A stretch of DNA of 64,000 nucleotides from Lingula anatina (Eukaryota; Animalia; Brachiopoda). Location: positions 52,864,788 through 52,928,787 of the forward strand of contig CM120640.1 in assembly GCA_051362555.1 (NCBI GenBank), written 5' to 3'. The notes beneath the pieces were generated by a model. The model did no database searches, was not told where the DNA came from, and saw only the letters and a program-made list of their open reading frames with translations. Each line of letters begins with the position of its first letter. Within the stretch, counting starts at the first letter, position 1. The position numbers and the translations under genes were made by a program. Positions 13,428-51,894 of this stretch are shown piece after piece.

Positions 13428-14143
13428 GGGAACTTAAAGTTTGACAAATCCAATGCTGTCATTGTCCATTTACTCCAAAATTAGGCGTAATGCAATTAAT
13501 TGTTTTCTTGCCCACATCACCAAATAGAACATCTAGTATACAACTGCTGTGTTTAATCGGTTCGAAACCTGTAGGGACAGAAAATATATGAAAACATCGG
13601 GTTGTCGGAAGAAAAAAAAACTACCAGTATCTGACGCAGTTAAAAATGGATGGTTGTCTGTGGACTCGCGTTACAGAGGACACAATAACTTTTCCGGTTT
13701 TTATACCTGAATTAAGTCGTATTTCTGTGCGATTAATCTCCATAATTATCTGCCTTGTTTTTTATCTGCACCGCACACCTTTTTCCCACAGATGAGGTAT
13801 TTGTTCATTGGACACAGGCTTGCAGATTTTCAAGGATTTCGAAAATGTTTTTTCTTATCAGAAGCTCTTTGAAAAACGTCTTAGCTCTAATCTTGCCGCC
13901 TCATTTATCAGTGGTTAAGTAGGCTAGAAAATGTCATTAGTAACATACAGAGATTTCCATGAATGGAGCGACGAACAATTGCGAACGGTTGTTTTGCCCC
14001 ATGTAACAATAAAAACGAATTAGCAATTTCCGCAGATAATCATAGTACGGGATGATTTTAATGCTGTGTCGCTTAATCGCTGCAAATGCACGGTGTGTGA
14101 CTTTTACTAAGGTATGAGGTGGGATAAGATCAGAAAATGAGGC

Positions 14144-14177
14144 TATAAAAGCTCGTGGGCTATGTGAGTGATCAGTT
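14144..14177 (+). promoter_or_regulatory. Proximal TATA box plus initiator of the CRH/DH44-like gene
   Basis: TATAAAA at 14144-14150 and TCAGTT Inr with its A at 14174, exactly 30 nt downstream. A donor follows at 14557|GTAAGT and an acceptor tttccag| at 14655 lies just upstream of the ATG at 14672. Confidence 0.6.
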
Positions 14178-14671
14178 AGTTGAGTGCACGTTGAGCTGAG
14201 CACACCGCAGGAGCGGTGCACCACTCATAAGATCGATTTTACTGCGTGCTTCTCATACAGATATTATATTGCAATGAAACCAGTCAGGAATAAGTTTCAA
14301 TTGATACTATAAGTTAATCAAGGAGCTGTCAATAGAAAACTTGCTGTTTTTTCTTTTGCCTCAGGTGGGTGTTCTCAGCGGTGCAAGGAGCTATTAATTC
14401 AACTGATGACTTATTGCTTGCCAAGTGTGTAGAGGTTATTTATTTAAAAAGCTGTCGAGCAGCGCGTGAGACATCATTTCAAGCTGTGTCGCTTAGTGAA
14501 GATGGCCAAGTTAAACTGTATCTTAATTTTCTTTTTTAGATCATTTGGTTTTACTTGGTAAGTTTAATTAAACAGAGCTTTTCAATTAGCTAATTTTTAA
14601 AAAAATTTTCCGCATCTATATACACTGCTTATTTTTGATTTGTTTTTCTTTCCAGGTTTGAACCAAAGATT

Positions 14672-17600
14672 ATGACGACGTCACAAACAGCGTGGTCAAT
14701 CGTGCTCCGATTATTTTTACTACTAACTGTAGCCTCTCTACTCATACCATCCGCCCGAGGATACGTTCTGCCAAATTTAGACACAGTCCCAGAGGAATCG
14801 ATGCTTCCGGAGGTTCAAGACAGTGACTACAAAGCCAACAGAGTAGCCGACAAAATAGTACAAGTTTTATTAGAATCCAGAAAGGTCCACCACAGGGTTA
14901 AAAGACCGAGTAAGCACCATTCCCCTTCATCTCGTTATCAATTTAAACCGAGTAAGTACCCCTCCCTGTTAACCAGTTACTAACCTGGTGTGTGGTATCA
15001 CTGATCATTTACTGCGGCAACCACTTCCTAGAGTCGTCAGCAGCAAATTGAATATTTCACGTGTTATTGTTGAAATTGTTTTTTTTTCTTTATAGAACGA
15101 TGCTCAGCAGTTGACTTCGTTCAAATCTGCGCTAAAATTATATTGACAAGGTTAGCATCGATGCATTATTGTCAGCTTGTGTCTGCCTACATGTGACAAA
15201 AGTTGAGAACAATCATCGTTTCTTTTTTATTCAAAGAAAAAAGTAATGCAATTTTCAGATGCCTTGCTGACAGTAAATCATTTGTGATGAGGATTGTTTA
15301 TAATCCTACTTATCATACCTTTTATCCTTCCTCCTTCTTTCCATCCATGCCTCCTTACAGTAGCTTTCAACAGTAAAAGAATTTTTATTTTCAAAGCAAA
15401 TCTAATATTTTTTATGGTACACAATCTAATTATATAACATATTAAGTGTGTGTTTAATTGTATGACGTATTTAATCCATCCACCCGTGTGCTTGTGGTAT
15501 TGTATCCTCCATTTTTCGTTTTTATATTAATCTTGTTTCATTTTTCGTTATACTATATTGGATGTTTACGGTGAAATGCAAATTCTATAACAAACCCCTA
15601 CATTTATGGTACTTATAACATTTACCCCGTACGCATAATAACCTTGGACTTTAACATAAATTATGGAAACATGAAAATGAAAATAGCAGGTCAAGCTGGC
15701 AAATGAACTTGTCAAGTTTGCCCGTATGATAATTATAACTTAATGAGCGTAATACGTGTGGATATAATGGCAATGAAATATACGTTAATTATACGCCTAT
15801 TCGTTACTAAGCGTCTAAGTGCATAGAACGTACTGACACTGGGGCTCGCATGTCAGTGATGTCCGAGTACGTGATTGTCTAAACCGTATAAGTTGACCTT
15901 AGCGGTGACATCCGAGAACATGGTACAGAAAGGCACTAACTATGGTGTCACCCCCGTGTCCTCTTCATGTCGGACACGGATCTCTGATATCAGCACATAA
16001 CTAAAGCACCTGGCAATGTGGTATTCAATACCCCTGCATCATTTTGTCACTCTTATTGTCCTTAATTTCTTTTCATAAACCAACGTAGTCTGAATGGGTG
16101 CAGACCGTGGCTTGCACCTAGTCTTGCTTTGGCTTGCGGTCCACCCCCGACCACGTCCTGACTCCGGAACTGAGTAGATATTGTGCAACAATGTCGCCGA
16201 TTCTTGTTTACTCTCCATGAAAAATTGTGTTTTGGCTATTTCTGTTAATTTGTTCTTAACTTCGCGTTCAAATGCCATTCACATTCAGCCTATTGACATA
16301 ATCGATTGCCTTCCGGTTATATCTCGCTTTTGGAGACTTGTTCCTTCATACGGAATGATATATCACTTTGTAATTATAGACAACCGTGTACATAAGTTGC
16401 AATACAAAATGTCATGACATACTCATTGTGTGCAAAATTTATTAGCCTTTCTTTTATCCATTCAAAGTCATTGAGAAGATCCTGTAAAACACAACTGTAC
16501 AAAGAAACGCCTTTTTTTATAAGTCGATTGGTAACTATTCTTGCCGGTAGCGTTGCTTTATGTCTTTTATCGTCATTTGCCTTGAAGGGTCTCTATCGTT
16601 TATCATGACAACAATGTTTTTTAAGAAAACAATGTCGAAGGTTTGGAACTTGACTTAAAAGGGAGGCGTCTCTTGTGTTAAATAATACTTGTGAAGATTA
16701 GGTCATAACCTGATCACGACAAAGTATGCCTTTGAAACTCTAAAGGCCATAAAGTATCTTGATCTTATACAGTACCCTAGTATACTCTTTATGAATCAGA
16801 TTGATCTCCACGCTCATTTAAAGAAGCCAATTGGGAACAGTGTAAACGATTTTCTTTGAGTAAGCTATTAAATTTCAAAAATAACATACCTAAGCCGTAA
16901 CAAACCAGTGAGCATGTTTTCGTCGATACTTAATTAACTCCGACTTTTGCGTAGAATTGTTCTAACTTATCGATCCAAAGTTTCAAATTTTGTTTACTTA
17001 TCTATTAACACTTTATTCTCGGGCGCTATAGCTAATTTACGCTAGATTACCTCTTCGTTAACTATTACGAATTTCAAAGGAGCACCTTTTCCATAGATGT
17101 GTTTTCTTCGCTTACTAATTAGTTTCCTTCCTTGTGTGTTATGGGTGTCCTAGTACGTTGCCTTTGCAGTTGCATGTTTCCAATAGTGTTTATTGGTTTA
17201 AGGCTGACATATAGATATTTTTGGTGACTTTTAACTCCAGTAACCGACCCACCTGTCCCCCCATTGTGTCTTGCTCAAAGATTCTCACCTTCCGTGCTCT
17301 TAATGAAATATAAGACGTTTGAGAAGTCGATACTGTGTCATTAGGAACATATAGTGAACGCCATTGCGAGTAGGTTGTCATTAAGTAGACTTAATTATAA
17401 AAGACGCAAATCTTTGAAGTGTATTCAAAGGATTGTGCAGGATTTGAACACACTTCTTTGAACTGCAATACTTTTTTAGACTTGCAAAAGTTCTTTACTG
17501 GAAGGTCAGATTTTTTTCTAAAACTTAACGTGTACTTGTTGGTTTTTCATTTAATCTCACAGTTTATGTTCACTTAAGTGTGACGTCACAGTGGTCAGAT

Positions 17601-21725: not shown

Positions 21726-21807
21726 CAGGCCTACCCAACTACCAGACTCGGCACCGAAAGATTCTGAATTCACCGGTATATCGGACCACACTAACCGTTT
21801 TCAAGGT
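21726..21807 (+). mobile_element. Solo terminal fragment of the MITE family seen intact at 40989-41542
   Basis: caggcctacccaactaccagactcggcacc...accggtatatcggaccacactaaccgttttcaaggt matches the TIR of the 41 kb element. Confidence 0.75.
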
Positions 21808-22118
21808 TTGACTATACTAGGAGTCGTTTATCAGCAACATTGAAGGGCTACCTGAAATGTAACTAGTCGGCTTAAATTCGTAAATGTAAATTGGAACAAT
21901 GCTAATCTATGATATCAAACATCAAAATTATTGAAAATTATTGAATGACCTTTAACACCCTTTTCTCTGATTTAGCTTTATTCGTACTATGGATGGTGTC
22001 ATTGAAAATGCAGTAGATAAGCGGAGCCATATATGCTAATACCGAATGCTTTTGGCGGTGCCAAGTCTGTCGCCTCTATCAAATCCTCCAATATACGGCC
22101 ATAGAAACGGTCTTGAAA

Positions 22119-31318: not shown

Positions 31319-31904
31319 TGCCCCTATTTCACACAGACCACGAATCCCACGAAAGGCCATGAATTGACAAATTTCACGATTCGTGGTTGAATCGTAATCA
31401 GGTCGTGAAGTTCTTAACAGATTCGTATATATTCGTAGTCAGTTCTTGCACTTTTTGATCAACATGAATTGGTAGCAAAAACTTTGATGCCCCTATTTCA
31501 CACAGACCACGAATCCCACGAATCGCCAGGAATTGAAAATTTCAGGATTCGTGGTTGAATCGTAATCAGGTCGTGAAGTTCTTAACAGATTCGTATATAA
31601 TCGTAGTCAGTTCTTGCAATTCTTGATCAATCGGGAATTCGTGGCAAAATTTTTGAGCTGTTCAAAGTTCTGGCCACGAACTCCTGATTCCAAAAAATCG
31701 CAGTGAATTTCTGGACAATATTCTTGCGATTCCAGCCGAATCCCACGAATATTCGTAACACTATCGCACCTGTATCGTAACTGAATCGTAGAGCGCGTCG
31801 AATTAGACCAGAAAATTGGCAAAATCTCACGAATCCTCACGAATCCTAAAATTTGTCAATTCCTGGCGATTCGTGGGATTCGTGGTCTGTGTGAAATAGG
31901 GGCC
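31319..31904. mobile_element. PIF/Harbinger-like MITE with TAA target-site duplication and a tandemly duplicated left end
   Basis: gcccctatttcacacagaccacgaatcccacgaa occurs at 31320 and again at 31489 (period 169), and its reverse complement ends at 31903. TAA flanks both sides (31316-31318 and 31905-31907). cacgaat/attcgtg subrepeats occur internally. Confidence 0.8.
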
Positions 31905-33106
31905 TAAGCAAACAATGCATCAAATTAGTGGAATAGAAAGCTCATTAAGGCGGGTCCTTCAAATTTGATGTCCAATAGTTTCCCTTTTTCCGTGTTTCGA
32001 TATTTAGGTATGCGGCAGTGTAGATCATAGTTAACTCATGACATTACTAATGTATTTTGTTACCAAAAAGTCTTGTTGAAGTATTATAGGACAATTTAAG
32101 CCCACATGCCAGATTTAAGTACACTAGCAGCCTACGTGTAAATGTGATTTAGTAACCTACGTGCGGCTTGTAAAGTGCGCTAAACTTATTTAAAGGTAAA
32201 GATGGGAACTTGTTGACGAGAAATGCTTTATAAAAAGCAATTTCCGGGAGTTTTTTGGTACTTTTTTCCCCTAAAATCCATTTCCAAATTCACAATTTTA
32301 TGCCTTGATTTTTTTCTGTGGTTTGCATTAAGATCATCAATTGATAATGATCGAGGCGACCACAACCTGCCACTAAGTGCCATTTCCTGCAATTCGTGAA
32401 ACGCTTATATATACATGTATATACTGTATATATTTATCAATCCATCTATCAAAAGCACATCAATTGTTTATATGGTTTTTATGCGTATGTTTGTGCTCCC
32501 CTTTTTTCTTGCGACTTTTTCTATATTGTTCAAATTTCCGCTTGACATCTGAAGGACTTCATTTTCCGACCTACGAAGGTGGATGCAGTTGGTTCCTTAA
32601 AAGTTATGTAGCAAGGGAACAATTTAAAATAATCAGTTCTTCAAGACCATAATGACAGTAATGCCTTGACCCAAAAAATTGAAAGTCAAATAATTAGAAT
32701 ATTGTACAAGGAGCAGGAAAAACACTTAATTATTTAAATCATTATTTAATGTAAGCTAAAGGAATCATACTTTTTCTCAAAGGCTAAATATAAGATTTAT
32801 CGATAATGATCCCTAGAGGTCTCTCGAAATTTGATCGTCTAAAGAAACACTCCCTTACAGTATTTGCTTCCCTGCATAATTACCCCATAGTTCAGTTACA
32901 GGTAACCACAAATACAATTTTAACGTGACGTGACGCGAGATAAAGCAAGGACGCGTGGGAAGCTTTCTTTACATTTCTTTTTTATGTTCCGTCTTCTTTA
33001 GCTGATCGGTCTTATAAGGGGTGAGGTTGGAACGCAGTCTGGAGAGGCTACATTTGACTTAACAATTTTTATTAAAGGAACCTGCTTATTTTACAGCACA
33101 TTGAAA

Positions 33107-33600
33107 ATGAAGAAACCAATGGTAGTTCAAGTATACGCATCATTATTTTGCGTACTCCTCATATGTTTGACAGTTACAGAAGCATACTCATATATAAATG
33201 GGTAAGTTTTGCTACAGGATTTTTGTAAGTTGTATAGTTTATTTACCCTAAAGCGGTTCCTGTATCGCCTTTTCTCTACCGAAATACAAGAAAATGAAAG
33301 TTAAGATATATGATCATTTTCTCATTAAGTAAAACGGTTAACCCCTAAAAACATCAGCAATGTATGTTTGCCTTTTTTCGATTTAGATGAAACCGTAGCA
33401 TAAGATAGATAAATTTATAGGCCATTTTGCACTTGTGCATTCTTATGTTTTCAGCTTAGAAGATCAGGTCACGGATTTAGATAAAGAAGTAGATGTACTA
33501 TCAAATTTGGTCAGGTATCTAAAATCAAGAACGACTAACGGGTAAGAATGATGAACTTATTAGGCTTAATTTTGAAGTCTAACATATTGTATGAATGGAA

Positions 33601-33654
<54 letters not shown>

Positions 33655-36600
33655 TTGCTTGATGGGTATCTAAACCTCATATGTCAGACATATGTTTGAT
33701 AACAAGAACAAGAAGAGTTCAAAACAAAACAAAATGTCATAAAAATAATGAATTAAATACCCTGTTTAGAAGTGGCTAGTTTAGTCTTTGAAGGTTGCAT
33801 TTACCGTTACTATTCCTAAAGGGAAATGGAAGGCTATGCGTATGAGCAATTCAGCCTCTTAAAATCTAGAACCCAAACCCACAACTTTTAAGTCAATGGC
33901 CATTACTCAGCAATTATGAACGAGCATGTAATCATGAAAAAGTGATTTAAAAACATGACAGTGTAAGAAATGACAGTCTCGAGCTCACTAAGGATACACT
34001 AGATATCGCATGGGTGTATTTGTCAATTGCATATGTCATCAATTCAGGTAAGACAACTGTGGATGGACCAGGGAGGTTATTAAAGATCACACACACCCCT
34101 ACCGGATTCAGGAACGGCTATTATGTTCCTTGTAAGCGTGTTTTATTTGCCTGGCTCATTCAGATGTCACAGATTGCACTTACATACATCATTTGCCAAC
34201 AACTAATGTTTGTTTATTTTGCCTCAAAGTCTACCGACTTGACACATGATGACTGCTAATCGTTCAATAGCCCATCGATATGAGTTACGTCCATTCGGGG
34301 GGATTTACAACATGTTTTATTTGCTTAAGAAGCCATTAATGTCAGTTAATACATAGACGTCACCATTATCATTTAAAGATGTGCCTAATGGCCGATAAGG
34401 CACCCAATGAAGTGGCTTAATGCCATTGTTTTCATTATTGCAGTGTTAAAGCTATGAGTAGTGACATTTCCCTCAGCTGTCTTCACATTGTGCATTTCTA
34501 CTGATTTTGTACAGCTGGTTATTTGCATAGACGAAGAACGGTATGACTAATTCAAAAATTGGTGGGCGTTCACGTTTACACGTGCTTAAATCAGTTAAGA
34601 TAGCGACCAATTAAAGATGTTTTCAGGATAAAAATAGATGCTGCATTTTTAAAATAGACTGTCATAAAGTTGAGGGACAGTGAAGCATAAAAAATTGTAC
34701 TCGTGTCTGTATGTTTGTGTTTGTGGTGTTGTTAAATATTACTGACTTCAATAGCAAGATATTTATTGCAAAGTTAATCATGTTTTTGACCCTTAGTATT
34801 GGGGTAAAATTTCAATTTCACTTATTACATAACATCTTTGCAATTACAATCATCACTAATCACTTGTCATTTTACATGTGATAAATTATTTTTCAGACAC
34901 ATTCGAAAGATCTTGAAAGTAACGATGATCACTTACTATATCAAAGATTGTAAACTCTTAAAGATCCATTAAAAAGAATTTAGAATTATCAGTCAATTGT
35001 TCATCATTGTCTTTTATAGTCGCAAACGGCAGATAGACGCAGGCTTTGGCTCGAGAAACACGTTGGCACAGGATATTAGCAGACTAGTGCTAGGTAAGCA
35101 TATACGTATATGTAAATGTAAATTGAAAGCACGCGATAACTGCATCGGTAGATGACAGCTTCGTATGTTACAAGACTTGTATATTCATTAAAACGTTTCT
35201 CCAGGAAGTGATTGTGTTTTGAAAGACAATCCCATTCTAGGCTGAATAATAACATTAAAATGCACCTCGGCCGCGCCCCGTGGCTGTCTATTGGGTTCCC
35301 AAGTCTGGTTTTACAAACCTCAAATCAATGGCACCAGCATTCCGTTTCAAAACTGCCAATTCTACTGTAGACGCTTCAAAGAGGCGAATGAGCAATATAA
35401 TTCAGAGTTACTCTTTGAGTTGTGAAGCGAAGTACCAACAAAAACTGATTCTTTTTCACTGCAAAAATTCACACAAACTTAATCTCTACTGGGAATAATT
35501 AACCGACGGTATGAGTCGCTCTATGGCATCACTGTTATTTCCATACAAATGTATTATTTATAAAGTCTTTGAAATGTATGTTGCATCGATTTTCATGCCA
35601 ATCAAACGTTCGTCTTTTATAAGAAATTAGAAAATTTTGTGTTCATGAAATATTTGACAATCAGTGCCAGAAAAAAATTGACTTCTCAAACAGATAGCCC
35701 TACATTTTCTGGTTACCACACTTCACGTTCAAAAGTGAATTCTCAGCTATCAAAATGTATATGATGTTCAAAAACCCAATTCAGTATGTATGTATGTATG
35801 TAATACCATAATGTGACCCTAGCATTATTTTGAGCCTAAAAGCATTATAATTGGGATTTTGTATGTACATAATTGGTAAATGGACTAAGTAGCTTATGGA
35901 CATTTGCGTAAAATTTTTATATGACGGATGGAAAAATAATGTTCACTAAAAGCAAAATCTTTGATGCAGAATAATATTCTTGCGACCCCAATTACGCAGC
36001 GCAATAAAGTCATTATTTTTCGATGTTGCCTTTTGCGAGGGTGGGGGGTGCAGGGGGTGGAGGGTGTCACTTTCCTCCCTTTTCCTCATCTAGCATCCGT
36101 ACCATGCCAACAACCATTTGACCATTCCTTCACCAGAACACACGTTCTCGAAAAAGTTTTCTCGCATCACATATCCTCAAATACTGGACCTAATTAACCT
36201 CAAGAAAACACATTTACAAAACCTGTTGAATGTTTTTCGACAATTTGGTTCGTACCAAGTATCAAATATATTTGCATATCAAACATGGAGACGAAAAATT
36301 AGTATTTTAACATTTTTATGCACATTTATGTGTTCGGGCGCCTGTATTTCAAAACTGCCTTATCAATATCGCTTGCAATGAGGTATTTTTTATTTTATTA
36401 GATCATAAAATCACATCGGTGTTATGGGCACGATTTACGTATTGTTGTTGGTGCTGAAACGTTCGAATACCAGCGCGAAATAACTTATGTGAAATCGTTT
36501 TAATCCATTTACTGAAATGAACAATGCTTCCCACGCATTTTACGAAAGTCTTTAAAAGGAACCAATCACAGGTTTATATATTATTAGGGATTTTTTCCAC

Positions 36601-36829
36601 GGGTGGAATAATAGGTTGGCTAGCACAAGCCGCAAGAGCCACTGTTCGACATTTCTGTGCATAACTGTAGCATGTGACTGTAGTCCAATCATTGAAGCAT
36701 CCATATACCAAATATTTATTCTTTTTAAAGAAAATTTTCTCACTTTTAGCCCAACACAAAGCCCAGAGCTACAACAGTCCCGGAAGAAGACGAAGGAGCA
36801 TCAATACAAATAGTCAGCTGAGGCACTGA
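33107..36829 (+). CDS. DH31: DH31-type (Cys-free calcitonin-family) neuropeptide precursor; 111 aa; coding exons 33107-33201, 33455-33541, 35020-35093, 36750-36829
   Basis: The spliced product is MKKPMVVQVYASLFCVLLICLTVTEAYSYINGLEDQVTDLDKEVDVLSNLVRYLKSRTTNG-RKR-QIDAGFGSRNTLAQDISRLVLAQHKAQSYNSP-GRRRR-SINTNSQLRH*. All three introns are GTAAG...AG with matching phases (2,2,1). The 32-aa peptide ends in Pro-Gly-basic and carries the xIDAG(Y/F)GSR motif of annelid-type DH31. Confidence 0.85.
33604..33650. repeat. (TC)n microsatellite in a DH31 intron
   Basis: Uninterrupted dinucleotide run. Confidence 0.9.
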
Positions 36830-38338: not shown

Positions 38339-40988
38339 AAGTGGGGTCACTTCGATTATGATCTTTTGTGGTAGTGACACAGGCTATAGTCAGGGACCAG
38401 AATTACATTTTACGTTTTCTAATTCCTCTTCGCAAAATCAACGTTCAGGATATCTGAAAACCGGGTTTTTCTATAAAGGTATCAGATACCGAGTCAAATA
38501 TGGTCAGTTTCAAGCGTCAGTGTACTCAGTCTGCTTTATCAACTGCGTATTTGGATGGCTTTCATTCTCTAGAAATCGAATTATTAGGAACCCATTTAAT
38601 TGTTGACTTGCAACTGGATGGAAATTTCGTTGTAATAACTGCCCCATATTGTGGCATAGAACTTAATCTCCAAAAAGAATGGCATCTTTTCAGATGTCAA
38701 GACAATAATCGCCTGAAACAGTGTTTTGATAATTATCAAAGTAAGAAACAAAGACGAAAATAATTTAGGTTACAGTGTAATCAGCATATTTATTGGCTTG
38801 GATCATATCGAAACGCTGCGTTTGATACAGCAATTAGATAACACTAATTGACTGTGATTCTAATGATGAAATCAATTTGCACCGCCCTTATCATGTATGA
38901 CGATTTCTTGGTGTTTGCTTGAAGTATACCTCAAACCTACAAATAACATCTCACGCAAAAGAAAAATAGAAAAGCTCAATTCCAATAATATCAATCTTTC
39001 AAGACTTAATTTCAACTTACTTCGATTTGGGAAAGAATGCAAACCAATAGGGATCCCATCTTATCGGTCTTAGCCAACAAAACTATAACAATTACTGAAG
39101 GTAACAATACGTCAAGATTCCAAATTCAATAATGAACCTTAAATATAAGCGTGATACTTCGCGTGACTGCCTTCCTGGTGAGTAAGGAAGTGAAAACTGA
39201 TGTCTCTTTTTTTCGCTTCTCCAGCAACTACCTTCGGGCATAAGGGCATATTTTCCATTCATCATCTGAAACGTGATCCACGTGAATCAACTCATTACGA
39301 GAAAAACAATATTGGAAGAGTTGAGATAGGGTCTTTAAATCTACTCAAGATACCACTTTGATATTTGCTCTTGTTCTGATAATTTTTTTTATTATCAAAA
39401 GCAATAAGACGTGTAAGAGGTTAAATTTTATGATGAAATGAAAACCTATCCTTTTCTATGAAAATTTGACTAGCAAAACATTGTACATGCATGTATATTA
39501 GCTAAAGCTAGGCTGGGGACTACGGAGAACATAATTAGAAAACAGTTCATGCTGTTGCAAAAAAGTATCAAAAATTGTCATGACCTGATTGTCAAATTGT
39601 CAAACCTGATACCCTCCCCCCCCCCCTTTTCACTCTCCCTCAAGTTAGGCTCTACAAGACCCAAAAAGTAAATAATCGGTAGATCGTAGGCCCTTTGACT
39701 GTAGCATCTACCGCATAATTTCACTACTCGGCATTGTTGGAAAGGCATTTAGCGATTTTAAAAGGTTTACAGACACCGCCTAGCGTGTGCACCAAGAATC
39801 ATAGGGTGGTTTTTGAACCAAAAGATCAACATGATATTTTCTGTTCAGGAAAAATGCCGAGAGCAGAAATAGTTGACGCTTTATTAGCTACTAAATGCTA
39901 CTAAAGCATTCGATTTTGTTGGCAGAAATTAACTTTTCACCTTGCTACAGAGAGTCGGATTGCCTCTCAAACTCCAACAAGGATTGAGAGCAACCCATGA
40001 GGATAGGACAGGCAACGTTTAATTTGATGGCATAAACAGTGGTAAAAAACAAAGCCGCGTTCTTTTTTCTTCAGTTATACGCCCCTGAGACGCCATCCAA
40101 AGTCATCCTTGTACAAAAAAGTGCTTAAACGCGTAATCATTAAAATGTGTGTGTGTGTGTGTGTGTGCACACGTGCTCTTAATCAATCACACTGGCACCA
40201 ACAAATGCAAGCGAGGGCTCTATATTGTGTTAGTTGCACCTATATGAAGTGTGCAATATTCCGTCACAAAAAGCACATCAGCATATTGTACGCTGACTTG
40301 CCTATACGAACATTTTCAAAATCTGCAAAATTTTGCTGTTATTTATAGACATAACAGAGATTTGTGCACGATAGCAAATAAAAGAAAGATATTTTAATTT
40401 CAATTATAATTTTCTCGGTATTGAGACCATCAGTACATCTAGAACCAAGCTGATCTGCGCTACTCAAAAACAAGATCAGATTATACACTCAACTTAAGAG
40501 GACAAAAGAAAATAATATATTGACAAAGTCACTGTAAAAAGAAGTGGGGGAATGAAAATAAGGAAAGAATGAAACAGACCCAACTAAACTTAACATAATG
40601 CTAATAAATAACTAACCAAATAATTGCACTCCTTACATTTTCAGTACGCTTAGTTCCGATCTATGAATCCCACGAACACTTTTTCTAGCTATTAGAAAGA
40701 AGATGCATGTTTTAAGGCATTTTATTATATAGGTTTCCCGGGGAATTCGATTTTCAGACCATTCAATTAAAATTCATACAACAATGGGTCATTCAGTATT
40801 TCCTCGATTCATTAGGAGATAGGGATTACAAAGGATGCTGTTTTGCCTGCATTTATACTTACCTTTTCATGAAGTATATAATGCATTTAGCTTTGGGATT
40901 ACATGTATAACACAAGAGCTAAAACACCGAGTTTTGGACTAGGATTGCAGGTGATTTTGAATCTCTGGTTTATGGCAGCTTGCTATAT

Positions 40989-41542
40989 CAGGCCTTCCCA
41001 ACTACCAGACTCGGCACCTAAGGATCCTGAATTAACCGGTATATCATCGGACCACGCTACCCGTTTTCAAGGTGTGTGTCAGATCGCATTTCGGAGTATC
41101 ATACCCCAGAACAAATTTTGTAGCACGACTGCGGGCTCATCCACGCTCGGCTGAACAACCTTAAACTGTACTCTAACTTTAGAGTACTCTATTTTATTGT
41201 CTCTATGGGGATATATGGGGACTTTATGACATTCGGTTTGAATGTTTTAACCACTTTTGATAGGGCTTTTTTGCATTGTATTAGATTAATGTGGCAGTCT
41301 AAGGTTCAGCTAGGTGGCTTTCAAATTTATGCATCCGGTTTTAAAATCATATAGCGATTTTACGACAATCGTTTACTATCCAATCAAGGTGACAGCCGAG
41401 CATGCCAGGGCTCATCCTGTCGGTGTTCTGGCTGATACTCCGAAATGCGATCTGACACACACCTTGAAAACGGGTAGTGTGGTCCGATATACCGGTTAAT
41501 TCAGGATCCTTAGGTGCCGAGTCTGGTAGTTGGGTAGGCCTG
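40989..41542. mobile_element. Foldback MITE, 554 bp, with about 110-bp TIRs
   Basis: caggccttcccaactaccagactcggcacctaaggatcctgaattaaccggtatatc...gatcgcatttcggagtatca is near-perfectly inverted at about 41432-41542. tatat flanks both ends. Confidence 0.85.
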
Positions 41543-42147
41543 TATATACGTGGGATTCGTTAAGACCGGGTTGAACACTTTTTACTGAATTGATATATGA
41601 CTGATTGGAATAGGCAGTGAAAAGTTGTTCGTTCACAGTGATCCTACTACTAGAGATAAGGATGTAGGTCCACATACAGTGGATATTACTCTAGAAACCA
41701 AAAATCACATTTTTTCTTGAACTCGTGCAATCACCGCCTCAACACAAAATTACCTATTTGATTCGATCAAGTCGTGTCTTAAGAACAATTGTTTGCACAC
41801 ATAGCATAATCTTAACCACAATTTCCGTGAAAATCAATAGCAATTGTTGCTGATCTAATTATCTTAAGTGTTTTCATAATGATAACAGAGGAAATTGAGA
41901 AACAAGGCAGAGCCTACTAAGATGGTATTCTTGTATAACAGGTGGGATTTTTGACATGAAATAGGAGTGGAATACTACGTCATGTCTTCGAACGAGTTCT
42001 CAATAAGACATTGCGGATTTAATAAATTGCGCCCTCTGTCGCCAGAGAGAAACATAGTGTCGCTTAGTATCGAGTGCGGGGGTGAGGAATTCCGCATCCA
42101 TCACAAAAAGGTGGTCAATCAAAAGTAAAAAAATGTGATTAACGCTT

Positions 42148-42228: not shown

Positions 42229-42579
42229 GTGCACGCACGCGCTTCTTTATACCAGTTGTCTCTCCAAAAGTCTTCCAAAACCAAACACAGCCTCACACTC
42301 CGCCCCGATCCTGAACATTTTTAAACTTCGTGTTTCCACTTCTTTCCACACTATTGATAGCACTTAACAAGGTTTGGATCACACGTAATATTTATATGCA
42401 CGAACTTTGTTAACTTTGCAATACACATTTAATAATTTTTCGAGAACACTAAGGTGGACAATATCCCTCGCTTAATTTTCATGAACTTTACTCTTCCCTT
42501 GCTCATTAAGATATATTGACATTACACTGTGACAATATTTGAAATAATCTTGTCACATTTATTAGAATTACAAAGGCAA

Positions 42580-42647
42580 TATAAAAGAGAGGGTATGCTC
42601 GATCGTTACTGGTCCTCTGAGCAATAAACCAACCAAGAACTAGAAAG
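42580..42647 (+). promoter_or_regulatory. TATA box and short non-coding first exon of the calcitonin-type gene
   Basis: TATAAAA at 42580-42586, donor AAG|GTGAGG after 42647, and acceptor tttag| at 43004, 23 nt before the ATG at 43028. Confidence 0.55.
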
Positions 42648-43027
42648 GTGAGGATTTTATGAATAGTTTATCACAGAGAGGTACTTTTTCATTCCCGTTT
42701 ATCAGTTTATAGTTCACTAACTATAAGATAAAACAGTTCGTCCAGCAAATTTAAGTGTCATTTACACAATTATATGGGTTTCTTAGGAGCACTCTTTGAT
42801 CGTTAATAGTGCTGATCAATTATAGTTAATATTTTCTAATAGGAGAGGACTAAGGTTTCAAAGACAAAGAGACTAATTTAGACGAATTATGGTTCATATT
42901 CTGCGAGCGTCGTGATAGAAAATTTCACAAGGCCATTACATCCTAGGCAGTAATGGCCATCTATTATTCCGACATTATAAATATTCTTCATTTTCCAAAT
43001 TTAGGACATAAATAGAAAACTGGGAAA

Positions 43028-45126
43028 ATGTTGCCAGAATGGAGAAGTTTAGCTCACTGGGGTATGACTATTGTATTTTTCCATATCCTTGTTCTGAATC
43101 TAACAGGTGCCTCAAAACTGGAAGCCCTCAGGTGAGTTGTGTCATTTTAAAAGTCAGGATACATTAGAAAACTAATTACAGAAAATGTTGTGAACAGTTA
43201 CATACATTCCAGAGTAAGCAGAACTCGCAGAAAGAAAATCAGGTATTATTGCAAAACGCTGGGACGAAAGGTTATTTTGTTTAAATGACGTTTTCTTGGT
43301 CAAATGAACAAAAAATTGTAAATGAAAACATATATTTTGTGTCCTTTAGTGTTGATAAATGAGCTTGCCAGTGTCATGAAGGACCGCAGGTCTGGAAGTC
43401 TATTTATGATGTTGTCGGTCGACTGCAGTCAGTATGATGATGATGATGATTAGTATTGATACATTCATTGATTTGGGCCTTTGGAAAATTGTCTGTTTTA
43501 CATTCTTTAGAAGTATTAGAAACCTAAAACGCCAACGCAGCCAATTTTCTGAAATGAAGCGAGTATTAGAAGAAATCGACGCCGATTTATTGAAGCAACA
43601 GTAAGTATATCGAAACGATTTATTTTTGTGACACTCTTTGGTAGGGCCTATGTAACAATGAGCGCTTCTTCAGCGCATTGTTTACCCTTGGGCTTTTCTG
43701 CTGTTTTCATTTCTTCAAATAATTGCCCATACAATGTATTTCATATGAATCATATGGTGTCGTAATTCATTTTTTTGGTATAAATTTGAGTTTCAAGGTT
43801 GAAATTCACACGAATATTTGATAATAATATAGAACATTACGGATTACAGAAGAAAATGTCTTCTCGTATGGTATTTGTAAAGGTTTGAGTACAGCACAGC
43901 GTGTATATTTTCAGGAAACGGACATGTGCACTGAACGGGGGCATGAGCACTTTCTGTTTTGGAGAAAACATCCATGATAAAATGAACGCATATGAGTATT
44001 TGGGTAGCCACAAGAGTCCTGGCAGAAGAACCATCAGATCCACAGGAGATCTTCATGCTTGGCGGTAAGTTTTATATTTGGATTTCATCTGTTTTCTATA
44101 GGCTACCATACAAGTGTTTGCTCAAGTGTTGACTTACTGAAAGAATGGAAACCCCAACCAAGCCCTCTAAATGTGCCATTTGGATATGCAGCTTTTTTCA
44201 AGCAGTAATTTTATGTATATGGCTTTTCTTCATTTATTAAACGGAGACAATTTAAAAAAAAATTTTTTTAATACTGTAGACATTTCTTTTTATAGATTTG
44301 CAATTGAATTAGTTCTCACTTAAGGTATACAATATAGCACTTTCCGCACTCTTTTTAATCACTTTAGCACCACCGATGACGCATTTGCTGCAAATGCCTT
44401 GCGAAAAAATCTTAACAAAATTCTTTTCACGTCATTAATTGCTAGATGAACATAAGCATGTGTTAACATGGCGCAAAAACTTTTTTCTGGAAATATCAGA
44501 TCACAGATTACTGCAACTCAAGGACCATACAATGTGTTTGACCAGACAATCAACTTGTCATTTGAGTGCAAATTTGTTATGAAATGAAGTTGATATGGTG
44601 TCTACCTTTCACATTCCAATGTTGTGGGTTCACAAAATAGCTGTCTCGCGTTCTCAGAAACTGCACTGTAATGAAGTTAAGTTTGACGTTGTCCGTTGCA
44701 TGGCAAGATTACTTTTCCCGTGATAAGATTACTTAATGATTTTAATAAATACAACGCATCGCTGGTTCAACAGCTTTCATGATCATCGATCATTTCAGAA
44801 CCACACAATAGCGTTTTAAAGGAAGAAGGCCTACTTCTTAACAGGAAAATATCACGCTCCTGCCTCTTATATTTTGGCTTTGATAAATGATATTTGATAT
44901 TTTTTTCCCTCTGTTGAAGGCGAAAGTCGAATTTGCAAGATTTAGATAATATAACATAAAAGTTTACATATATATATATAGCATTGGTAAAAGCAACAAT
45001 CAAACACCCATTGTCAGAGACATCACATTGAGTCTTTATGACATCGCTTAACAACCAAAATAAACAAACAAGATGCAATGAAACCGGTCGGGGCAAAATA
45101 ACTGCTCTTCTTTATGTCTTTTTATC

Positions 45127-45157
<31 letters not shown>

Positions 45158-47153
45158 TAACAAATTAATATTATAATGTTCACTCAGATGAATATATGTT
45201 ATGCCATATCCTCGTCATTTAAGGCTTATCTATTTAGATTTACCATCGAGCCTTTGTCTTCCAATTTGATTTGGCACCAAAAAGACAAGATCATACTTAT
45301 AATATACGATAAATTCCTAACGTCTTCATCGAACAAATACATAAGAGTGGTTGTAGCGCATGCAGATCACGCTTATATCAAATGGCACCTTTCAAATTTA
45401 GTTAATTTCAGCAAGTCTGGTTAATTTTTTTTTTTTTTTTTTTTTTTGGTTTTCAGAAAACGAACCTGCAGCGTGAATGGAGGCATGAACCCATTTTGCC
45501 TCATCTCCGACCTTGACGCCAAGCTTAACGCCCAAGAGAAACTTGGCAGCAAATTCGGACCTGGTAAAAAACGTGACAGTAAACCGAAATCAAGGTAATA
45601 ACACAGTCATTTTCATGAGATCTCTAAATTATTTAAAGCATAGCTCTAGTCATCTGAACATAGGGTCTTAGCCTAATCTGACCGATTACTGACAGACAAC
45701 GATATTTTACAGCGGTATAAATCGAGAGAGTATTATCTTATAAAGCTTAACTTCCATATTGAAAACTTCTTAGTTTTAAATTATAAGTGTTAATATTCCT
45801 GCATTGAGACTTTCAAGTCGATATTGAAACTGTATTTTTCCACAGGAAAAGGCGTTCCATTTACTGGACTGGACCATGTCCATCAGGAACGGGCACCTGC
45901 AGTTATCCACTGGTCCCCGCCAGCCAACCGTCCCCGTCCATAGGGAATACTGGCAACATGTATGGAGTAAACACTGGCTTAGGTAAACCCAATTTTGGAG
46001 GGTTTGGTGAACCATTTAAGAGAGCCCAATCAAACAGTAACTTTTATCTTACTGATGAAAACCCCTACGCCTTCTACAAGAGAGGCAATCCAGCTGACAT
46101 GGACAGGTTCTACTTCAATGATGACGAGTCCATGTCCAACTTTTACAAGAGAGATGGCGAAGATGGAGAATTTGATATGTTTGTTCAGGGAGAAGACGTC
46201 GGTCTCGGAGAGGATTCCGAAAGGTATTTTTTCTTCACTTTTACAAATTTTCTATCGTTTTCCTTTCATACATGTAAATCTTACCATTATCTGAGCACTG
46301 TAAATGTTAAAACGATTTTTTTTGCTATAGTATCATTTTTAGTACATGTCAACCAGTTGAAATTGATAGTTGACATTGTGACATAATTACCAAAAACCCT
46401 CTTTACATTATTTCAGCGTTCTTCGCAGTATAGCGAGAAAGAGAAGTGGAATCTCGTCCTTGAAGCGTCTGCTAAGCAACTTGGATGCACGCCTTCATAA
46501 ACAACAGTAAGTTGCAACCATTTAGCTTTTAATAGTTAGCGAGATTTCTTATTTAGACAGTTAAAGAAGCAAAAATAATGAAAAAAATGTGTTCAATAAG
46601 AGCAATGCAAAAATTCATGAATAAGTGTTATATCCCTTTTCAATCATATGCTTTATAAGATCAAGGTACAGCTTCAAAAGTTACACTGATGTCTCCAAAA
46701 ATAAAATCACCATTAATAAAAAGAAAACTTCATGCCTCACTTTATCATGTTACCGACTCCAGGAAACGCGCCTGTCTCATGAATCTGGGCCACTCTTGTG
46801 ACGTGGAGAGTGCAGCGGCAGCAGCCGACACTTGGAAGTACCTGAACTCCGTCCACAGCCCAGGAAGGCGGCGCCGGGACACAAGGGCGGCCAATAAAGA
46901 TCGCAACACCGACGAAGCTGACGATAAAAGGGAGGTAACAGATGACAACTCAGCCGACGAAGAGAAGCGCGAAGAGGAGACGGCAGCTTCTGATGAATCC
47001 AAGGCGGACAAACGCGAAGAGGGTGTCAAACAAAAAGGTGGAAGCTTCTACAGTTTTTATCCATCCCGACGTAGTGAGGACTGGCAAAGTTCTGACGGTG
47101 ACGACGCTTCCCGGTTTTATTCCAAGTTTTACAAACTGGTTCCATTCTATTAA
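43028..47153 (+). CDS. Calcitonin-type neuropeptide polyprotein, about 446 aa; coding exons 43028-43131, 43511-43600, 43915-44064, 45457-45594, 45846-46223, 46417-46506, 46763-47153
   Basis: The first exon encodes the signal peptide MLPEWRSLAHWGMTIVFFHILVLNLTGA. Six GT-AG introns, all phase 2, give one open frame. It contains KR-TCALNGGMSTFCFGENIHDKMNAYEYLGSHKSP-GRR, KR-TCSVNGGMNPFCLISDLDAKLNAQEKLGSKFGP-GKKR and KR-ACLMNLGHSCDVESAAAAADTWKYLNSVHSP-GRRRR. An N-terminal Cys pair plus C-terminal Pro-amide in 31-33 aa is the calcitonin signature. Confidence 0.88.
43915..44064 (+). CDS. Exon encoding calcitonin-like peptide 1 (33 aa, C-x9-C, Pro-amide)
   Basis: ttttcag|G AAA CGG ACA TGT ... AGT CCT GGC AGA AGA ... 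TGG CG|gtaagt. The + strand frame is absent from the ORF track. Confidence 0.88.
45457..45594 (+). CDS. Exon encoding calcitonin-like peptide 2 (33 aa, C-x9-C, Pro-amide)
   Basis: Poly-T tract, then ttttcag|A AAA CGA ACC TGC ... GGA CCT GGT AAA AAA CGT ... TCA AG|gtaata. 16/33 residues are identical to peptide 1. Confidence 0.88.
46763..47153 (+). CDS. Terminal exon encoding calcitonin-like peptide 3 (31 aa, C-x7-C, Pro-amide), acidic KR-delimited spacers and an FY-rich tail
   Basis: ctccag|G AAA CGC GCC TGT within ORF 46689..47153. AATAAA lies at 47553-47558. Confidence 0.88.
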
Positions 47154-48391
47154 AATATCTCGTCACGAAACTAGATACAGTAGCTTATTACTTGTTAATG
47201 GTGGGTTAGAGGACTTTTATCATGCATTGCAAGTTGTGGCTCACTCATGCAACCTGTAAGCCCTGGAGCTATCTAGCGCTGCGTCCAACAGTGAGTTAAT
47301 ATGGCTTTGTATTTGATTCGTTCTAAACAAAAATCAAATTTTATTTGTAGATTGTCTTAAAGGCGGAGCACAAAAATGCCAGACCAAAAGCTATTTGCAA
47401 CTTGACAATGCTGAAAACAGATGGATTTGATATTTGCAAATAAGGTATGGTAGAAGTAACCGCTTCGTTATGTGCAATAATTTTTGCGCAGTCCAAAATA
47501 TTCATTGATTGCGCGACTGTAAATTACTGAAATAATTGGATAAATAAGGTTTAATAAATCTCTTACAATAAGGTAATAATTTTGATGTTTTTTTTTTATT
47601 TTTTGCTCAATTATAAATCCATATTTTTAAATAGAATGGTTTCAGATATGGTTCAACCTTAAAGCTAGGTTCTATGGCACACTTATCTATCACAGCACAG
47701 CAGTGTTGAACAGTAAAAAACATTAAGTGTATATCTCAGTGCATATATTACTTAACAATAACTCTTATAACACTATCAAATAACTGAACAATAAAATGTA
47801 AAGATATGTTACACACAGTGCACACTCCAAGATAAACTATAAAATACAAAACATGAAATATTTGCTAAAAATGTAATTAAAAATCAGTATATAAAATATG
47901 AACAATCAAATTATCAAAATCATACAACAGGTTATGAGATACACAGAAATATCCAGAAGTATTTTTCAACAAAGGCTTCAGATTTTACTAGAACTGTAAC
48001 ATTTTCTTCACCAGGACCATTTCATTTATGAAAATCTAGTCCAAATTCATGCAACACCAATATGGCAGCTTAATCATGTGACATTTCCTGATTTTCATAT
48101 GACCTGCAACAACTAAATTCTAGAATGTCTACTTTGCTGTTTTGCAGAATTTAAACTGTAGTGGATGAAAGAAATGTGGCACAGAAAGAGTTGAAAATAA
48201 AAAACATGATTTAAGAATATATCGCAAAAATTATTTCAATCAAGACAACATAATAAGTTATAAATACCAAAAAAAACTTACATCTATGCTAGTGATCATC
48301 TTGGGTCTTGAAGCAAATAAAACATTAAACTTGCTGTCTCTCATCTCTAATTTCGAGGCAAGATGGGGTAATTGTTAATTTATAATTTCAT

Positions 48392-49888
48392 TTACCCATC
48401 TTTTTCTCGCAGTTCTGCAAAATACAACTCAGGAATTTGTCCCTCTTCAACATCTGTTGAATTGGTACTTCTTGAAGTGCTTGCAAATTCAAAGGATGCA
48501 TTCCCAGATTTGACAAATTTGAGGCCATCATAGCCCTTCCTTGTTGGTAATCCGTTTATTACCACACTAAGTATATACCATACATTAGCCTCTAACTCCA
48601 CCCCAGCCATTCCCATATCAAACTGATATATATCACTCTTCATCTTCACCTTGCATATATCTTGTCGATCATAAAGACAAAGTCCATTCAAATCTGATAT
48701 TTGAAGTTTCACATTATATTCGGTGGACAAGCCTTTTTCTTCAGGCCCATATAAACCAACCCCATAGAGCAATATATTTGTATCACAGCAAAACACTATT
48801 GCATCAGTTTCCCTACCATTAACCACCCATCCTGATTCTGAATTTCTAAACCGTTTACATTTCTGCAGTTTGGAGTTTTCCTGCTTAGGCAAGCACCTCC
48901 TGCTGGTTGGAAAAGGGACATTAACTCGATTGCCAGTAATCAAATAATCAAGAACTTCCTTTGATTCTTCTTCCCGGAGGATTCCCTTTTGAACCACTTT
49001 GGAGTTGAAAAACTGTACACTTAGTAATGGAAAACGTATAAGATACAAACAATTCCCTAGTACCAATCTAAAATTAGTTCCAATGAGCTCTAAATCCTGT
49101 CTTTTGCATTCTGATTCTGCCCAATGGCAGCATGCTTCATATACACCTGACTCTGGACTACGCAGAGTATCTCGACTTAAAATAAGGGTCAAAGTTTCTT
49201 GCTTGATATGTAAAAATGACTCACACTTCAACACTGTTTCTGTATTGATATCTATATACTGCAGGCACTTGTCTAGGAGATCAGCCTCTCCAAATGACAA
49301 ACTTTGTTCCAGTATTGTGCAGACATTTTCATCGTCCATGCTCTCTTGCAAGTAACCCTGACAATGGCGAATCAGTCCTGATAAGAGGTACTTCTTGGCT
49401 GCATATAATACCGCCATTACATTGAGAGGGGTAATATTGCACTCTTCAAAATAAATATACCTGAAAATGGAAAGGGCAAGTTATTTCTTGCTGCAAAGTG
49501 CCTTTGCTCCCTGATGTGATTGTCCTTTACATATATTACTGGCATTTTCACTGTGGTCAGATTTAGATGAAAATATTTCATGGAAACCAGACCATTACCC
49601 TGAACTGTTTTCATTGCATTGCTTGTGCACTAATGGAAATGTGTTGTACCTGTGTTTTGTATGGCAAACAAAACAGAGAAAATACATTACCTGAGTACAA
49701 CCATAAAGCTTTCCTTATCTAGTTCTGGGACAACAATTTCTGGTTGCTTTTCTGCCAGTGTTCCATAGAACATTGTAAAGAACACGGAACTTCTACTGAC
49801 CAGCATATACTTGTGTGCTGGAATAGGCTCCTGCTCCTCTCCCACTATAAAACTCACATCAGAAGCAATGCCCTTCTCCAACATGTAC
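48392..49888 (-). CDS. BTB/POZ-BACK-PHR domain protein (BTBD1/2/3/6-like Cullin-3 adaptor); exons 49888-49691 and 49460-48392; 5' exon(s) not resolved
   Basis: BTB motifs SDVSFIVGEEQEPIPAHKYMLVSRSSVFFTMFYG and LRYIY...NVMAVLYAAKKY are joined across a phase-2 GT-AG intron. BACK motifs WAESEC and LYLIRFP follow. The PHR domain runs from CKRF..SGW..DAIVF..LYGVGLYG to STNSTDVEEGQIPELYF. Confidence 0.92.
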
Positions 49889-51894
49889 CTGAATAACACA
49901 TAAAAATATTTATAATGGTGTAAAGTAAATTAGAAATTAAGTGTTATAACTGGATTTAAAAGAAATGGTCCAGTGGTAAAATGAATATCATGGGAGAGCA
50001 TTTCAAGTTTTTTAAGGACAATAACTTACAGGAATTCTATACTGACCTGATCAGATCAGAAAATGTCCTAAAGTCATATTTTTATAACTAAATATCCTAC
50101 CAAATTTACTTACTTTTCCCAATTCAGACTCTAAAATAGTAAAACCCCTCAAATAAAAGCACCTGATGTTGACATTTCCTTATGAAATTCCAGGAAGACA
50201 TGAAGGTCCAAATGAACCCTGATTCATTTAAAATGAAGTTTTCTTAACATTACAAAACATGAATGTCAAGTGAAGGGATGGGCTGAGCCATATTTCACAA
50301 GTAGACCATTTGTCAAGTAAATCCTGCATGGAATAACTTAACAAACAAAATGAATGTTTTTTACATGACTGTTGTTTACTAGTGAGCAAATACCTAAGCT
50401 TAGCAAGGTGATTGTTGCAGTGCGCAAGGGTAAAATGCTCTGATTAATTAATAAAAATATACTATATTTGTTTGAAAATACCCTTAAGGCATTTTAATGT
50501 CTAAAACCTAGCAAAGCTACCTGTCTGTAACTATTCAAACCTTAAAAATGATAAACTAATCAAATTAAAGTACCTGATGTTGATATTCCTTTCTTAAAAT
50601 AATATTATAATTAATTTTGAACAAATTAAATTAATTAGAATAAGTACAAAACATAAGGGACACTGGTCAAGCACTGATTTGTGAGTAGGAAAAGATTGAA
50701 TGTATAGAATTAGACTTGGCACAAAAACCCTGCAGAGGATACCTCTAAACATGATTAATTAGCTATAGCTGATATTCATTGAATCATATTGGTCAAAGCT
50801 GAGCAAACATTAGACTATTATATCACTGGCCAATGCTTAATCACTGCTTTTCCTTTTGAATTTGGATAAACTAAACAATAACAGAGCAGAACATACAAGT
50901 CCACCAATTCAAAATTGATTGGATTTTGGAAGTCAAAAGCCACTTTCAACCGATAAAATAGCCAGGATACAAAGGCATAAACATTTCATTTCTGAAGTGT
51001 TATGCAAGATCCCTGTAGTAAATATTTCAGGGAATATAAGTGCAAGCTTGGGTTTGTCAAGTCCAACTATCTTCAAATATTTTAGTTTGTGGGCCATCTT
51101 ACTTTATGCTTATACATCTGTACAACTTTTCCCCACTTCCAATTAGCCAACACGGTTAATAAGCTTTAAGATAAGGAACAATAACTCTCTTTTTTCTAAG
51201 GCCACACTTTTTTATTTTTATGGATGACATCCTCTGAGTACCCCAAAATCGGTGCGAGAGGGCGAAAAAAAAAAAAAACAGTCCAAAAAAAAAAAACTGC
51301 TTAAGTAAAGGAATGCTGTCAGTACACAGCTGGAAACACAAATTTAACCACAGAAACACGTATCAAACTAACAATATGTCTTTATCCATGCTCTCAAAAT
51401 ATTAAAGCATTGTGAATACGTCGTAGAAATGTAAAAAAAGTCATGAATTGATATACTTCATATTACCAAATCTATTTAAGGTTATTTCATGCATTCATTT
51501 GGTATAGCAATCAATAAAACAAATATCAATCAAACAGTGTGTCTTTATTTGTATTCTCAGAATATTAAAACATTTTGAACACTTCACAGAAATGTTTAAA
51601 AAATGATGCAAAGAATGCTTAATACTACCAAATCTATTAAAGGTCATTTCAGACGATGCCATTTTGTCAACTTCAACTCACACGAAGCAGCTAAACTGTC
51701 AGGTGGCCTGTCCGACCTTCAGCCCACCAAATACCTCGACGCCCTTGTTGACCCTTTTTTCGCTACAGAAAACCTGGTATTAATGTGCTGCTTTATACAG
51801 AATGTCACAGAAATGTTTCGGCCGCCGCCAGCCTTTCGCACAATTGTAAAAAGGTGATATCTCCATGCCTTATATCAATGGCATACCAATCCAA

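Follow-up and report, generated by a model that had tools for sequence, protein, structure and literature searches.

The question raised by this locus is whether a gene in which every intron has the same phase uses that uniformity to splice its exons alternatively. The locus lies in a stretch of 64,000 nucleotides (nt) from the brachiopod Lingula anatina (assembly GCA_051362555.1, contig CM120640.1, positions 52,864,788 to 52,928,787 of the forward strand; hereafter, the window) and encodes, at positions 43028 to 47153, a precursor of calcitonin-type peptides. A first-pass annotation, made from the letters of the window, had read the gene as a series of skippable peptide cassettes that could be joined in any combination, with vertebrate CALCA as the parallel. 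Upon following up this proposal, we conclude that it probably holds in a narrower form, namely that exons 3-5 of the Lingula calcitonin precursor gene are skipped in some transcripts, with exons 1, 2, 6 and 7 kept.

Seven coding exons, all on the plus strand, were modelled from the window sequence; together they give an uninterrupted frame of 446 codons. The six introns are without exception GT-AG and of phase 2, the five internal exons (90, 150, 138, 378 and 90 nt) are symmetric (2-2) and multiples of three, and each of the 21 forward donor-acceptor pairings yields a sense codon at the join; in all of this the exon map of the first-pass annotation was borne out. Skipping is thus mechanically possible, and probable for some exons, but a free choice of exons finds no support. 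It is also not the case that each peptide sits on a cassette: exon 7, whose long acidic tail becomes rich in Phe/Tyr at its end, carries the stop codon (47151-47153) and is therefore terminal, and what exons 2 and 6 encode is propeptide, not peptide. Exons 3, 4, 5 and 7, which had been taken for four peptide exons, do each open with one base, AAA and an Arg codon, but exon 5 encodes no calcitonin, so that three calcitonin exons remain. Likewise, the two ring types that had been described, C-x9-C (exons 3 and 4) and C-x7-C (exon 7), are present, but there is a fourth pair of cysteines, C-x6-C, in exon 5. The resulting order of putative signal peptide, propeptide 1, variable block (exons 3-5), propeptide 2 and last peptide is the usual lophotrochozoan plan. 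A scan for further calcitonin-type peptide exons in the window gave only these three matches and the end of the neighbouring DH31 peptide (see below). A search of the calcitonin introns for a hidden symmetric exon gave one weak candidate, which was rejected for want of a cleavage site. A TGCATG motif, present in one copy at 44697, is recorded without interpretation.

The gene and its all-exon precursor are already known. A protein search with exon 3 retrieved one protein among two candidates, RefSeq XP_013397049.1, an unnamed Lingula anatina entry ('uncharacterized protein LOC106163882') of 446 amino acids (aa), to which our model is identical at 441 of 446 residues, with five substitutions; the window represents a different allele or assembly. 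A search with exon 7 alone returned no match at 70-226 aa. In the supplement of Thiel et al. 2021 (PMC8557429), the all-exon precursor is contig comp157085_c0_seq1, headed 'Calcitonin' and given a length of 446. These two records bear out the earlier reading of one calcitonin-family gene with a 446-aa precursor and two ring types, and a contig that crosses all seven exons nearly refutes the alternative of two separate transcripts.

Family membership is further indicated by the peptides themselves. Protostome calcitonins have an N-terminal pair of cysteines 7-9 residues apart (PMC6002491), and those of mussels are 31-33 aa long (PMC7200681); in exons 3, 4 and 7 the spacing is 9, 9 and 7, respectively, and the peptides, of 33, 33 and 31 aa after Lys-Arg, each have a Pro-Gly-basic end that can donate an amide. 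Scallop and tubeworm proteins match at E 2e-15 to 5e-12, and the matched peptides agree by eye with the scallop precursors listed as CALC in PMC7200681. A hydrophobic core is found at the N-terminus of the precursor (hydropathy only; mean Kyte-Doolittle value of 2.6 over 11 residues from position 13). None of the seven single-exon translations reached the curated cut-off in a Pfam scan, a result that, for such short pieces, speaks neither for nor against membership. From what is known of the family, the product of the full transcript would be cleaved at paired basic residues (Lys-Arg, Arg-Arg) into three calcitonin-type peptides, which would be secreted with a disulphide ring and a terminal Gly converted to an amide, and which may act on class B calcitonin-type receptors. 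Both lophotrochozoan groups of calcitonin/DH31-type receptors have been reported in L. anatina (PMC8557429).

The evidence that points to skipping comes chiefly from relatives. The supplement of PMC8557429 lists 22 calcitonin entries from 15 species, which were compared by eye as protein sequences, not mapped to genomes. Six of the 15 species have more than one entry, and in five of these six (Novocrania, Phoronis australis, P. ijimai, Tubulanus and Lineus lacteus) the entries are alike at the end of propeptide 1 and unlike in the block that precedes propeptide 2. Novocrania, a brachiopod, has His at the junction in the form with an extra peptide and Gln in the form without it; the Phoronis australis entries have the same N-terminus and then continue with either His and one peptide or Gln and another; and P. 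ijimai has the same Gln/His pattern, although one of its entries is a fragment. A switch of this kind is what a phase-2 splice predicts, because Gln and His codons are distinguished by their third base alone, and a phase-2 intron leaves that base to the following exon. In Tubulanus and in Lineus lacteus, identical flanks enclose either of two distinct middle blocks, and one of these two has a non-standard Cys ring. More generally, in several nemertean entries a block with a non-standard Cys ring replaces the usual calcitonin peptide; two species have alternative contigs, with either kind of block. In the single-peptide precursor of Malacobdella and in the Lamellibrachia gene model, propeptide 1 runs directly into propeptide 2.

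No form listed for the five middle-block species drops a propeptide; in all five, the variation lies between the two propeptides, which does not agree with the claim that any combination of exons may be used. Because such pairs occur in five of the 15 species, another brachiopod among them, skipping in Lingula, confined to exons 3-5, is likely. By analogy with these relatives, the constant frame (exons 1, 2, 6 and 7) would always deliver the C-x7-C peptide, and the optional block would change how much, or which, of the C-x9-C peptides and exon 5 products is made. Exon 3, whose acceptor has the weakest polypyrimidine tract of the six (0.52 pyrimidines), is a first candidate for skipping. The main text of PMC8557429, searched by term, contains no discussion of splicing, exon phases or a DH31 neighbour, and no splice variants of lophophorate or nemertean calcitonin were found in the literature searched, outside which lay figures and most subscription papers. 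Skipping and swapping of middle exons in five lophotrochozoans appears to stand without comment in published transcript lists; it would add a fourth lineage to those with spliced calcitonin genes, and would bear on how the peptides are matched to the two receptor groups.

The uniform phase, which the first-pass annotation had taken to indicate alternative splicing, has another explanation. Exons 2 and 6 are paralogous (46% identity; 0 of 500 shuffles reached the score), as are the pairs 3/4, 3/7 and 4/7 (0 of 500 shuffles each), exons 3 and 4 being 50% identical over 38 aa. Six phase-2 introns would arise by chance with p=0.0014 if the introns were independent with equal phase odds, but this value does not apply, because exons 2/6 and 3/4/7 are duplicates. 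The same modules are found elsewhere. Of the two peptides in the scallop proteins, the first has its highest score with exon 4 (67) and the second with exon 7 (62-63). Exon 2 and exon 6 both match two propeptide windows, of which the weaker scores near the shuffle maximum. The twin-module order was also seen by eye in mussel, pearl oyster, limpet and Capitella precursors (Cardoso et al. 2020 supplement, PMC7200681).

DH31 provides an internal control. Its gene, which lies upstream of the calcitonin gene in the window, encodes one peptide, so that there is no choice of peptides to be made, and still has phase 2 at its first two introns. The phases of its three introns are 2, 2 and 1, and the introns lie after the signal exon, just before the basic cleavage site and inside the peptide, respectively. 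Phase uniformity in the calcitonin gene is thus no sign of a design for splicing, because it was probably inherited from two ancestral introns and spread by exon duplication. Phase 2 would be the ancestral state of the calcitonin/DH31 gene, with introns after the signal exon and just before the Lys-Arg site; a unit of propeptide and peptide would have duplicated at an early stage of lophotrochozoan history, followed in brachiopods by a further duplication, that of the first peptide exon. Such duplications would have placed all introns in phase 2 without any selection for skipping, and the skipping of middle exons, in use among relatives, would then come free of cost. On the intron phase of calcitonin genes, nothing was found in the literature searched, which included PMC9793003 and PMC13542836 but not figures.

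Direct evidence from Lingula is sparse. Reads from four of nine Lingula RNA runs (X1, X3, X4 and X7) were placed on positions 42300-48300, with a threshold of three reads for a junction. Most of the 43 reads lie beyond 47526 and, in X1, X3 and X4, have the orientation of a neighbouring gene on the minus strand. Coverage opposite to that orientation in X4 falls on exon 1 (about 76 and 52 nt) and exon 2 (62 nt). Sense coverage in X7 falls on exon 2 (66 nt) and exon 3 (82 nt), which together make one read length, and on exons 6 (92 nt) and 7 (199 nt). Some coverage of exon 7 in X1 is in the opposite orientation, and X7 and X3 have some in intron 3. Expression is low by this coverage, which agrees with the joins 1-2, 2-3 and 6-7 but does not prove them. 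None of the roughly three to four sense fragments on the gene falls on exons 4-5; in simulations of 3-4 fragments from an all-exon mRNA, the chance of this was 0.008-0.13, a weak, post hoc figure that ignores missing mates.

Several points weigh against skipping in Lingula or against the history proposed for its introns. No splice junction at the calcitonin gene is listed from the 43 reads of the four runs. RefSeq holds one Lingula protein, with no isoform label and in a cluster of one, and the supplement of PMC8557429 gives one Lingula calcitonin contig, as against three contigs for another Lingula precursor. Nine of the 15 species in that supplement have a single entry; the two Novocrania forms are named from two different assemblies; and the two fragments from Cerebratulus marginatus are unlike in the last peptide, so that the last exon may vary too. 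The locust calcitonin A gene has compatible exon boundaries, and no alternative transcripts of it were found (Veenstra, bioRxiv 10.1101/2021.07.28.454216). Finally, the DH31 propeptide exon does not align significantly with calcitonin exon 2 or 6 (444 and 252 of 1000 shuffles); because the propeptide sequences are no longer alignable, the introns of the two genes are matched by position and phase only.

These points leave room for other accounts. Splicing in Lingula is possibly constitutive, although we doubt it: one 446-aa precursor would release all the peptides, and the symmetric exons would be a fossil of duplication. This account agrees with the all-exon form being the only one on record (RefSeq and the PMC8557429 supplement), with introns that hold no hidden alternative peptide exon beyond the one weak candidate, with the locust precedent (bioRxiv 10.1101/2021.07.28.454216) and with the Capitella gene model, which has three peptides in one chain; it sits poorly with the middle-block variants in five of 15 related species, including Novocrania, and, for what the few fragments are worth, with the absence of reads on exons 4-5. 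The opposite extreme, in which tissues choose any combination of exons, even at the loss of a propeptide (junctions 43131-46417 and 43600-46763), is very improbable. Every pairing is in frame, but duplication accounts for the uniform phase, exon 7 is terminal, the middle-block species list no form without a propeptide, and Malacobdella and Lamellibrachia keep both propeptides, which corresponds to junction 43600-46417 and not to those that the first-pass annotation had named.

A CALCA-like choice of 3' ends, with transcripts polyadenylated in the intron after exon 3 or 4 and the ring types derived from different mRNAs, we consider improbable. Read-through at five of the six donors meets a stop after one codon, but we reject these stops as evidence for 3' ends because the donor consensus produces them: a phase-2 donor followed by TAA or TGA gives an immediate stop automatically, as it does at both phase-2 donors of DH31. 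Intron 3 has AATAAA at 44744 and 45059, a motif that is frequent in DNA of 36% GC. Sense coverage from run X7 takes up about 133 nt of bin 44913-45113 in the same intron, a bin that run X3 covers in the opposite orientation. Termite calcitonins A and B do come from different transcripts of one gene (PMC4237046), but the alternative forms of the relatives of Lingula continue into propeptide 2. Moreover, since an all-exon transcript with both ring types is attested (PMC8557429), any exclusivity of ring types is at most partial. There is next to no chance that exons 1-5 and exons 6-7 form two independent genes or transcripts. Exons 6-7 mirror the layout of exons 2-3, and one Argopecten RefSeq protein (P0007) begins just before propeptide 2, though without a signal peptide; against this, intron 5 is only 193 nt long, a search of the calcitonin introns gave no ATG-started exon ending at a phase-2 donor, the transcript contig spans all seven exons, and relatives have both modules in one chain. 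We therefore retain skipping confined to exons 3-5 as the probable reading.

Within this variable block, exon 5 differs from the rest. It encodes a C-x6-C pair within a 54-aa piece that ends in Pro-Phe-Lys-Arg, and two acidic peptides (46024-46077 and 46084-46146), each with a Phe-Tyr end before Lys-Arg. Lacking the ring and the Pro-Gly-basic end, its product, as read from the sequence, is no calcitonin-type peptide. Exon 5 shows no significant alignment with exons 3, 4 or 7 (387, 495 and 151 of 500 shuffles) and scores only 17-20 against the scallop and tubeworm peptides. Among 1.84 billion representatives, its only matches were the Lingula protein and two repetitive proteins that look unrelated, and the ESM Atlas gave no usable match, which implies neither absence nor novelty. 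The start of exon 5 resembles, by eye only, the Trp-containing middle peptides of nemerteans and phoronids, a likeness that we do not claim as a relationship. The Phe/Tyr-rich stretches in the exon 7 tail (47030-47153, plus strand) echo the Phe-Tyr-ending peptides of exon 5 (46024-46146, plus strand); the alignment of the two has no significance, and no relative of the tail was found. The Novocrania precursors that the supplement of PMC8557429 lists have no such tail.

The most interesting point of the analysis, in our view, is the neighbourhood of the two genes. The DH31 model, of 111 aa, is identical by eye to the Lingula DH31 of the PMC8557429 supplement, and has a signal peptide, a single peptide without a Cys pair and a Pro-Gly-basic end. 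Its stop codon lies 6199 nt before the calcitonin ATG on the same strand, head-to-tail. DH31 is considered to be a Cys-free calcitonin duplicate that arose in stem protostomes (PMC3890597); brachiopods retain both genes (PMC8557429), as does one chiton (PMC6425005). A tandem with matching phases, which here rests on one genome window of 64 kb, gives direct genomic support for a tandem origin of the protostome duplication, and no report of it was found in the literature searched (figures and most subscription papers lay outside the search). Taking the two lines together, we tentatively suggest that Lingula may keep the original stem-protostome calcitonin/DH31 tandem on one phase-2 skeleton, and that the slot between the propeptides may be a splice-controlled site of peptide swapping in brachiopods, phoronids and nemerteans, one that breeds non-calcitonin peptides such as, in Lingula, the C-x6-C piece and the two Phe-Tyr peptides of exon 5.

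Table 1. Calcitonin and DH31 gene features in the window (positions count from its first nucleotide)
Feature	Position	Strand	Details
Calcitonin promoter and short non-coding first exon (predicted)	42580..42647	+	TATA box at 42580; GTGAG donor after 42647; inferred from sequence only
Calcitonin exon 1 (putative signal peptide)	43005..43131	+	acceptor 43005; ATG 43028; phase-2 donor; few sense reads in run X4
Calcitonin exon 2 (propeptide 1)	43511..43600	+	90 nt; paralogous to exon 6; covered by X4 and X7 reads
Calcitonin exon 3	43915..44064	+	150 nt; 33-aa peptide at 43922-44020; C-x9-C; end Pro-Gly-Arg-Arg; partial X7 read
Calcitonin exon 4	45457..45594	+	138 nt; 33-aa peptide at 45464-45562; C-x9-C; end Pro-Gly-Lys-Lys
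Exon 5 (non-calcitonin)	45846..46223	+	378 nt; 54-aa piece with C-x6-C; two acidic peptides; acidic spacer
Calcitonin exon 6 (propeptide 2)	46417..46506	+	90 nt; read in X7
Calcitonin exon 7 (terminal)	46763..47153	+	31-aa peptide at 46770-46862; C-x7-C; Pro-Gly-Arg4; reads in X7
DH31 coding exon 1 (signal peptide)	33107..33201	+	phase-2 donor; hydrophobic core
DH31 exon 2 (propeptide)	33455..33541	+	87 nt; symmetric 2-2
DH31 exon 3	35020..35093	+	one base, Arg-Lys-Arg, first part of peptide; phase-1 donor
DH31 exon 4	36750..36829	+	end of Cys-free peptide; Pro-Gly-Arg-Arg; stop

Other elements of the window were noted in passing. Between the DH31 and calcitonin genes, at 40984-41548, are inverted arms of 130 nt that are 92% identical and resemble a miniature transposon, with a related piece at 21726-21810; upstream of DH31, at 31320-31905, a duplicated, inverted block seen by eye is probably another repeat element. 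A further secreted-peptide-like gene (14143-14980, plus strand), 18 kb upstream of DH31, has a TATA-like box at about 14143, an acceptor just before an ATG at 14672, a strong signal-like core, a basic site and phase-1 donors after 14909 and 14951. It has no Pfam match, and two of its motifs are absent from the supplement of Thiel et al.; most of its atlas leads below 0.9 are precursors of peptide hormones, including DH31. The minus-strand gene at 48392-49929, tail-to-tail with the calcitonin gene, has BTB, BACK and PHR domains (Pfam), and its 3' end is the source of most reads between 47526 and 48300.

CALCA, the parallel first drawn for this locus, is likewise a calcitonin-family gene with peptides on separate exons, but there the choice is between alternative 3' ends with one peptide per mRNA, whereas the Lingula peptides stand in tandem within one frame. 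The splicing of vertebrate calcitonin/CGRP is tissue-dependent (PMC6283891). A closer parallel is the in-frame skipping of calcitonin exons published for the sea cucumber Apostichopus and for brittle stars (PMC12638048, PMC6586643, PMC5627052). As in sea-cucumber AjCTP1/AjCTP2 and the brittle stars, where one gene carries a peptide per exon, exons are skipped in frame and the last peptide exon is kept, the peptide exons of Lingula are symmetric and multiples of three. The echinoderm genes have two peptides, one propeptide region and rings of 4-5, and their skipping is demonstrated; the Lingula gene differs in that it has three exons for calcitonin peptides, two for propeptides and one for a non-calcitonin product, its rings are of 7-9 residues, and its skipping is inferred.

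Among protostomes, the molluscan CALCI and CALCII precursors (PMC7200681) have the same order of signal peptide, propeptide, peptide, propeptide and C-x7-C peptide, with peptides of 31-33 aa and a Pro-amide end, but they come from two genes, are about 200 aa long and, among those listed, include none with a block like exon 5 or a long Phe/Tyr-rich tail; the Capitella precursor has three peptides (PMC7200681). The arthropod calcitonin A/B gene (PMC4237046; bioRxiv 10.1101/2021.07.28.454216) is similar in that one protostome gene carries two peptide types on separate exons. It is alternatively spliced in termite, cockroach and decapods, with A in the nervous system and B in the gut, but A and B lie on mutually exclusive transcripts, whereas the Lingula transcript has both ring types. 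As spliced calcitonin genes are known in vertebrates, echinoderms and insects, the splicing proposed for Lingula is a new case of a known kind.

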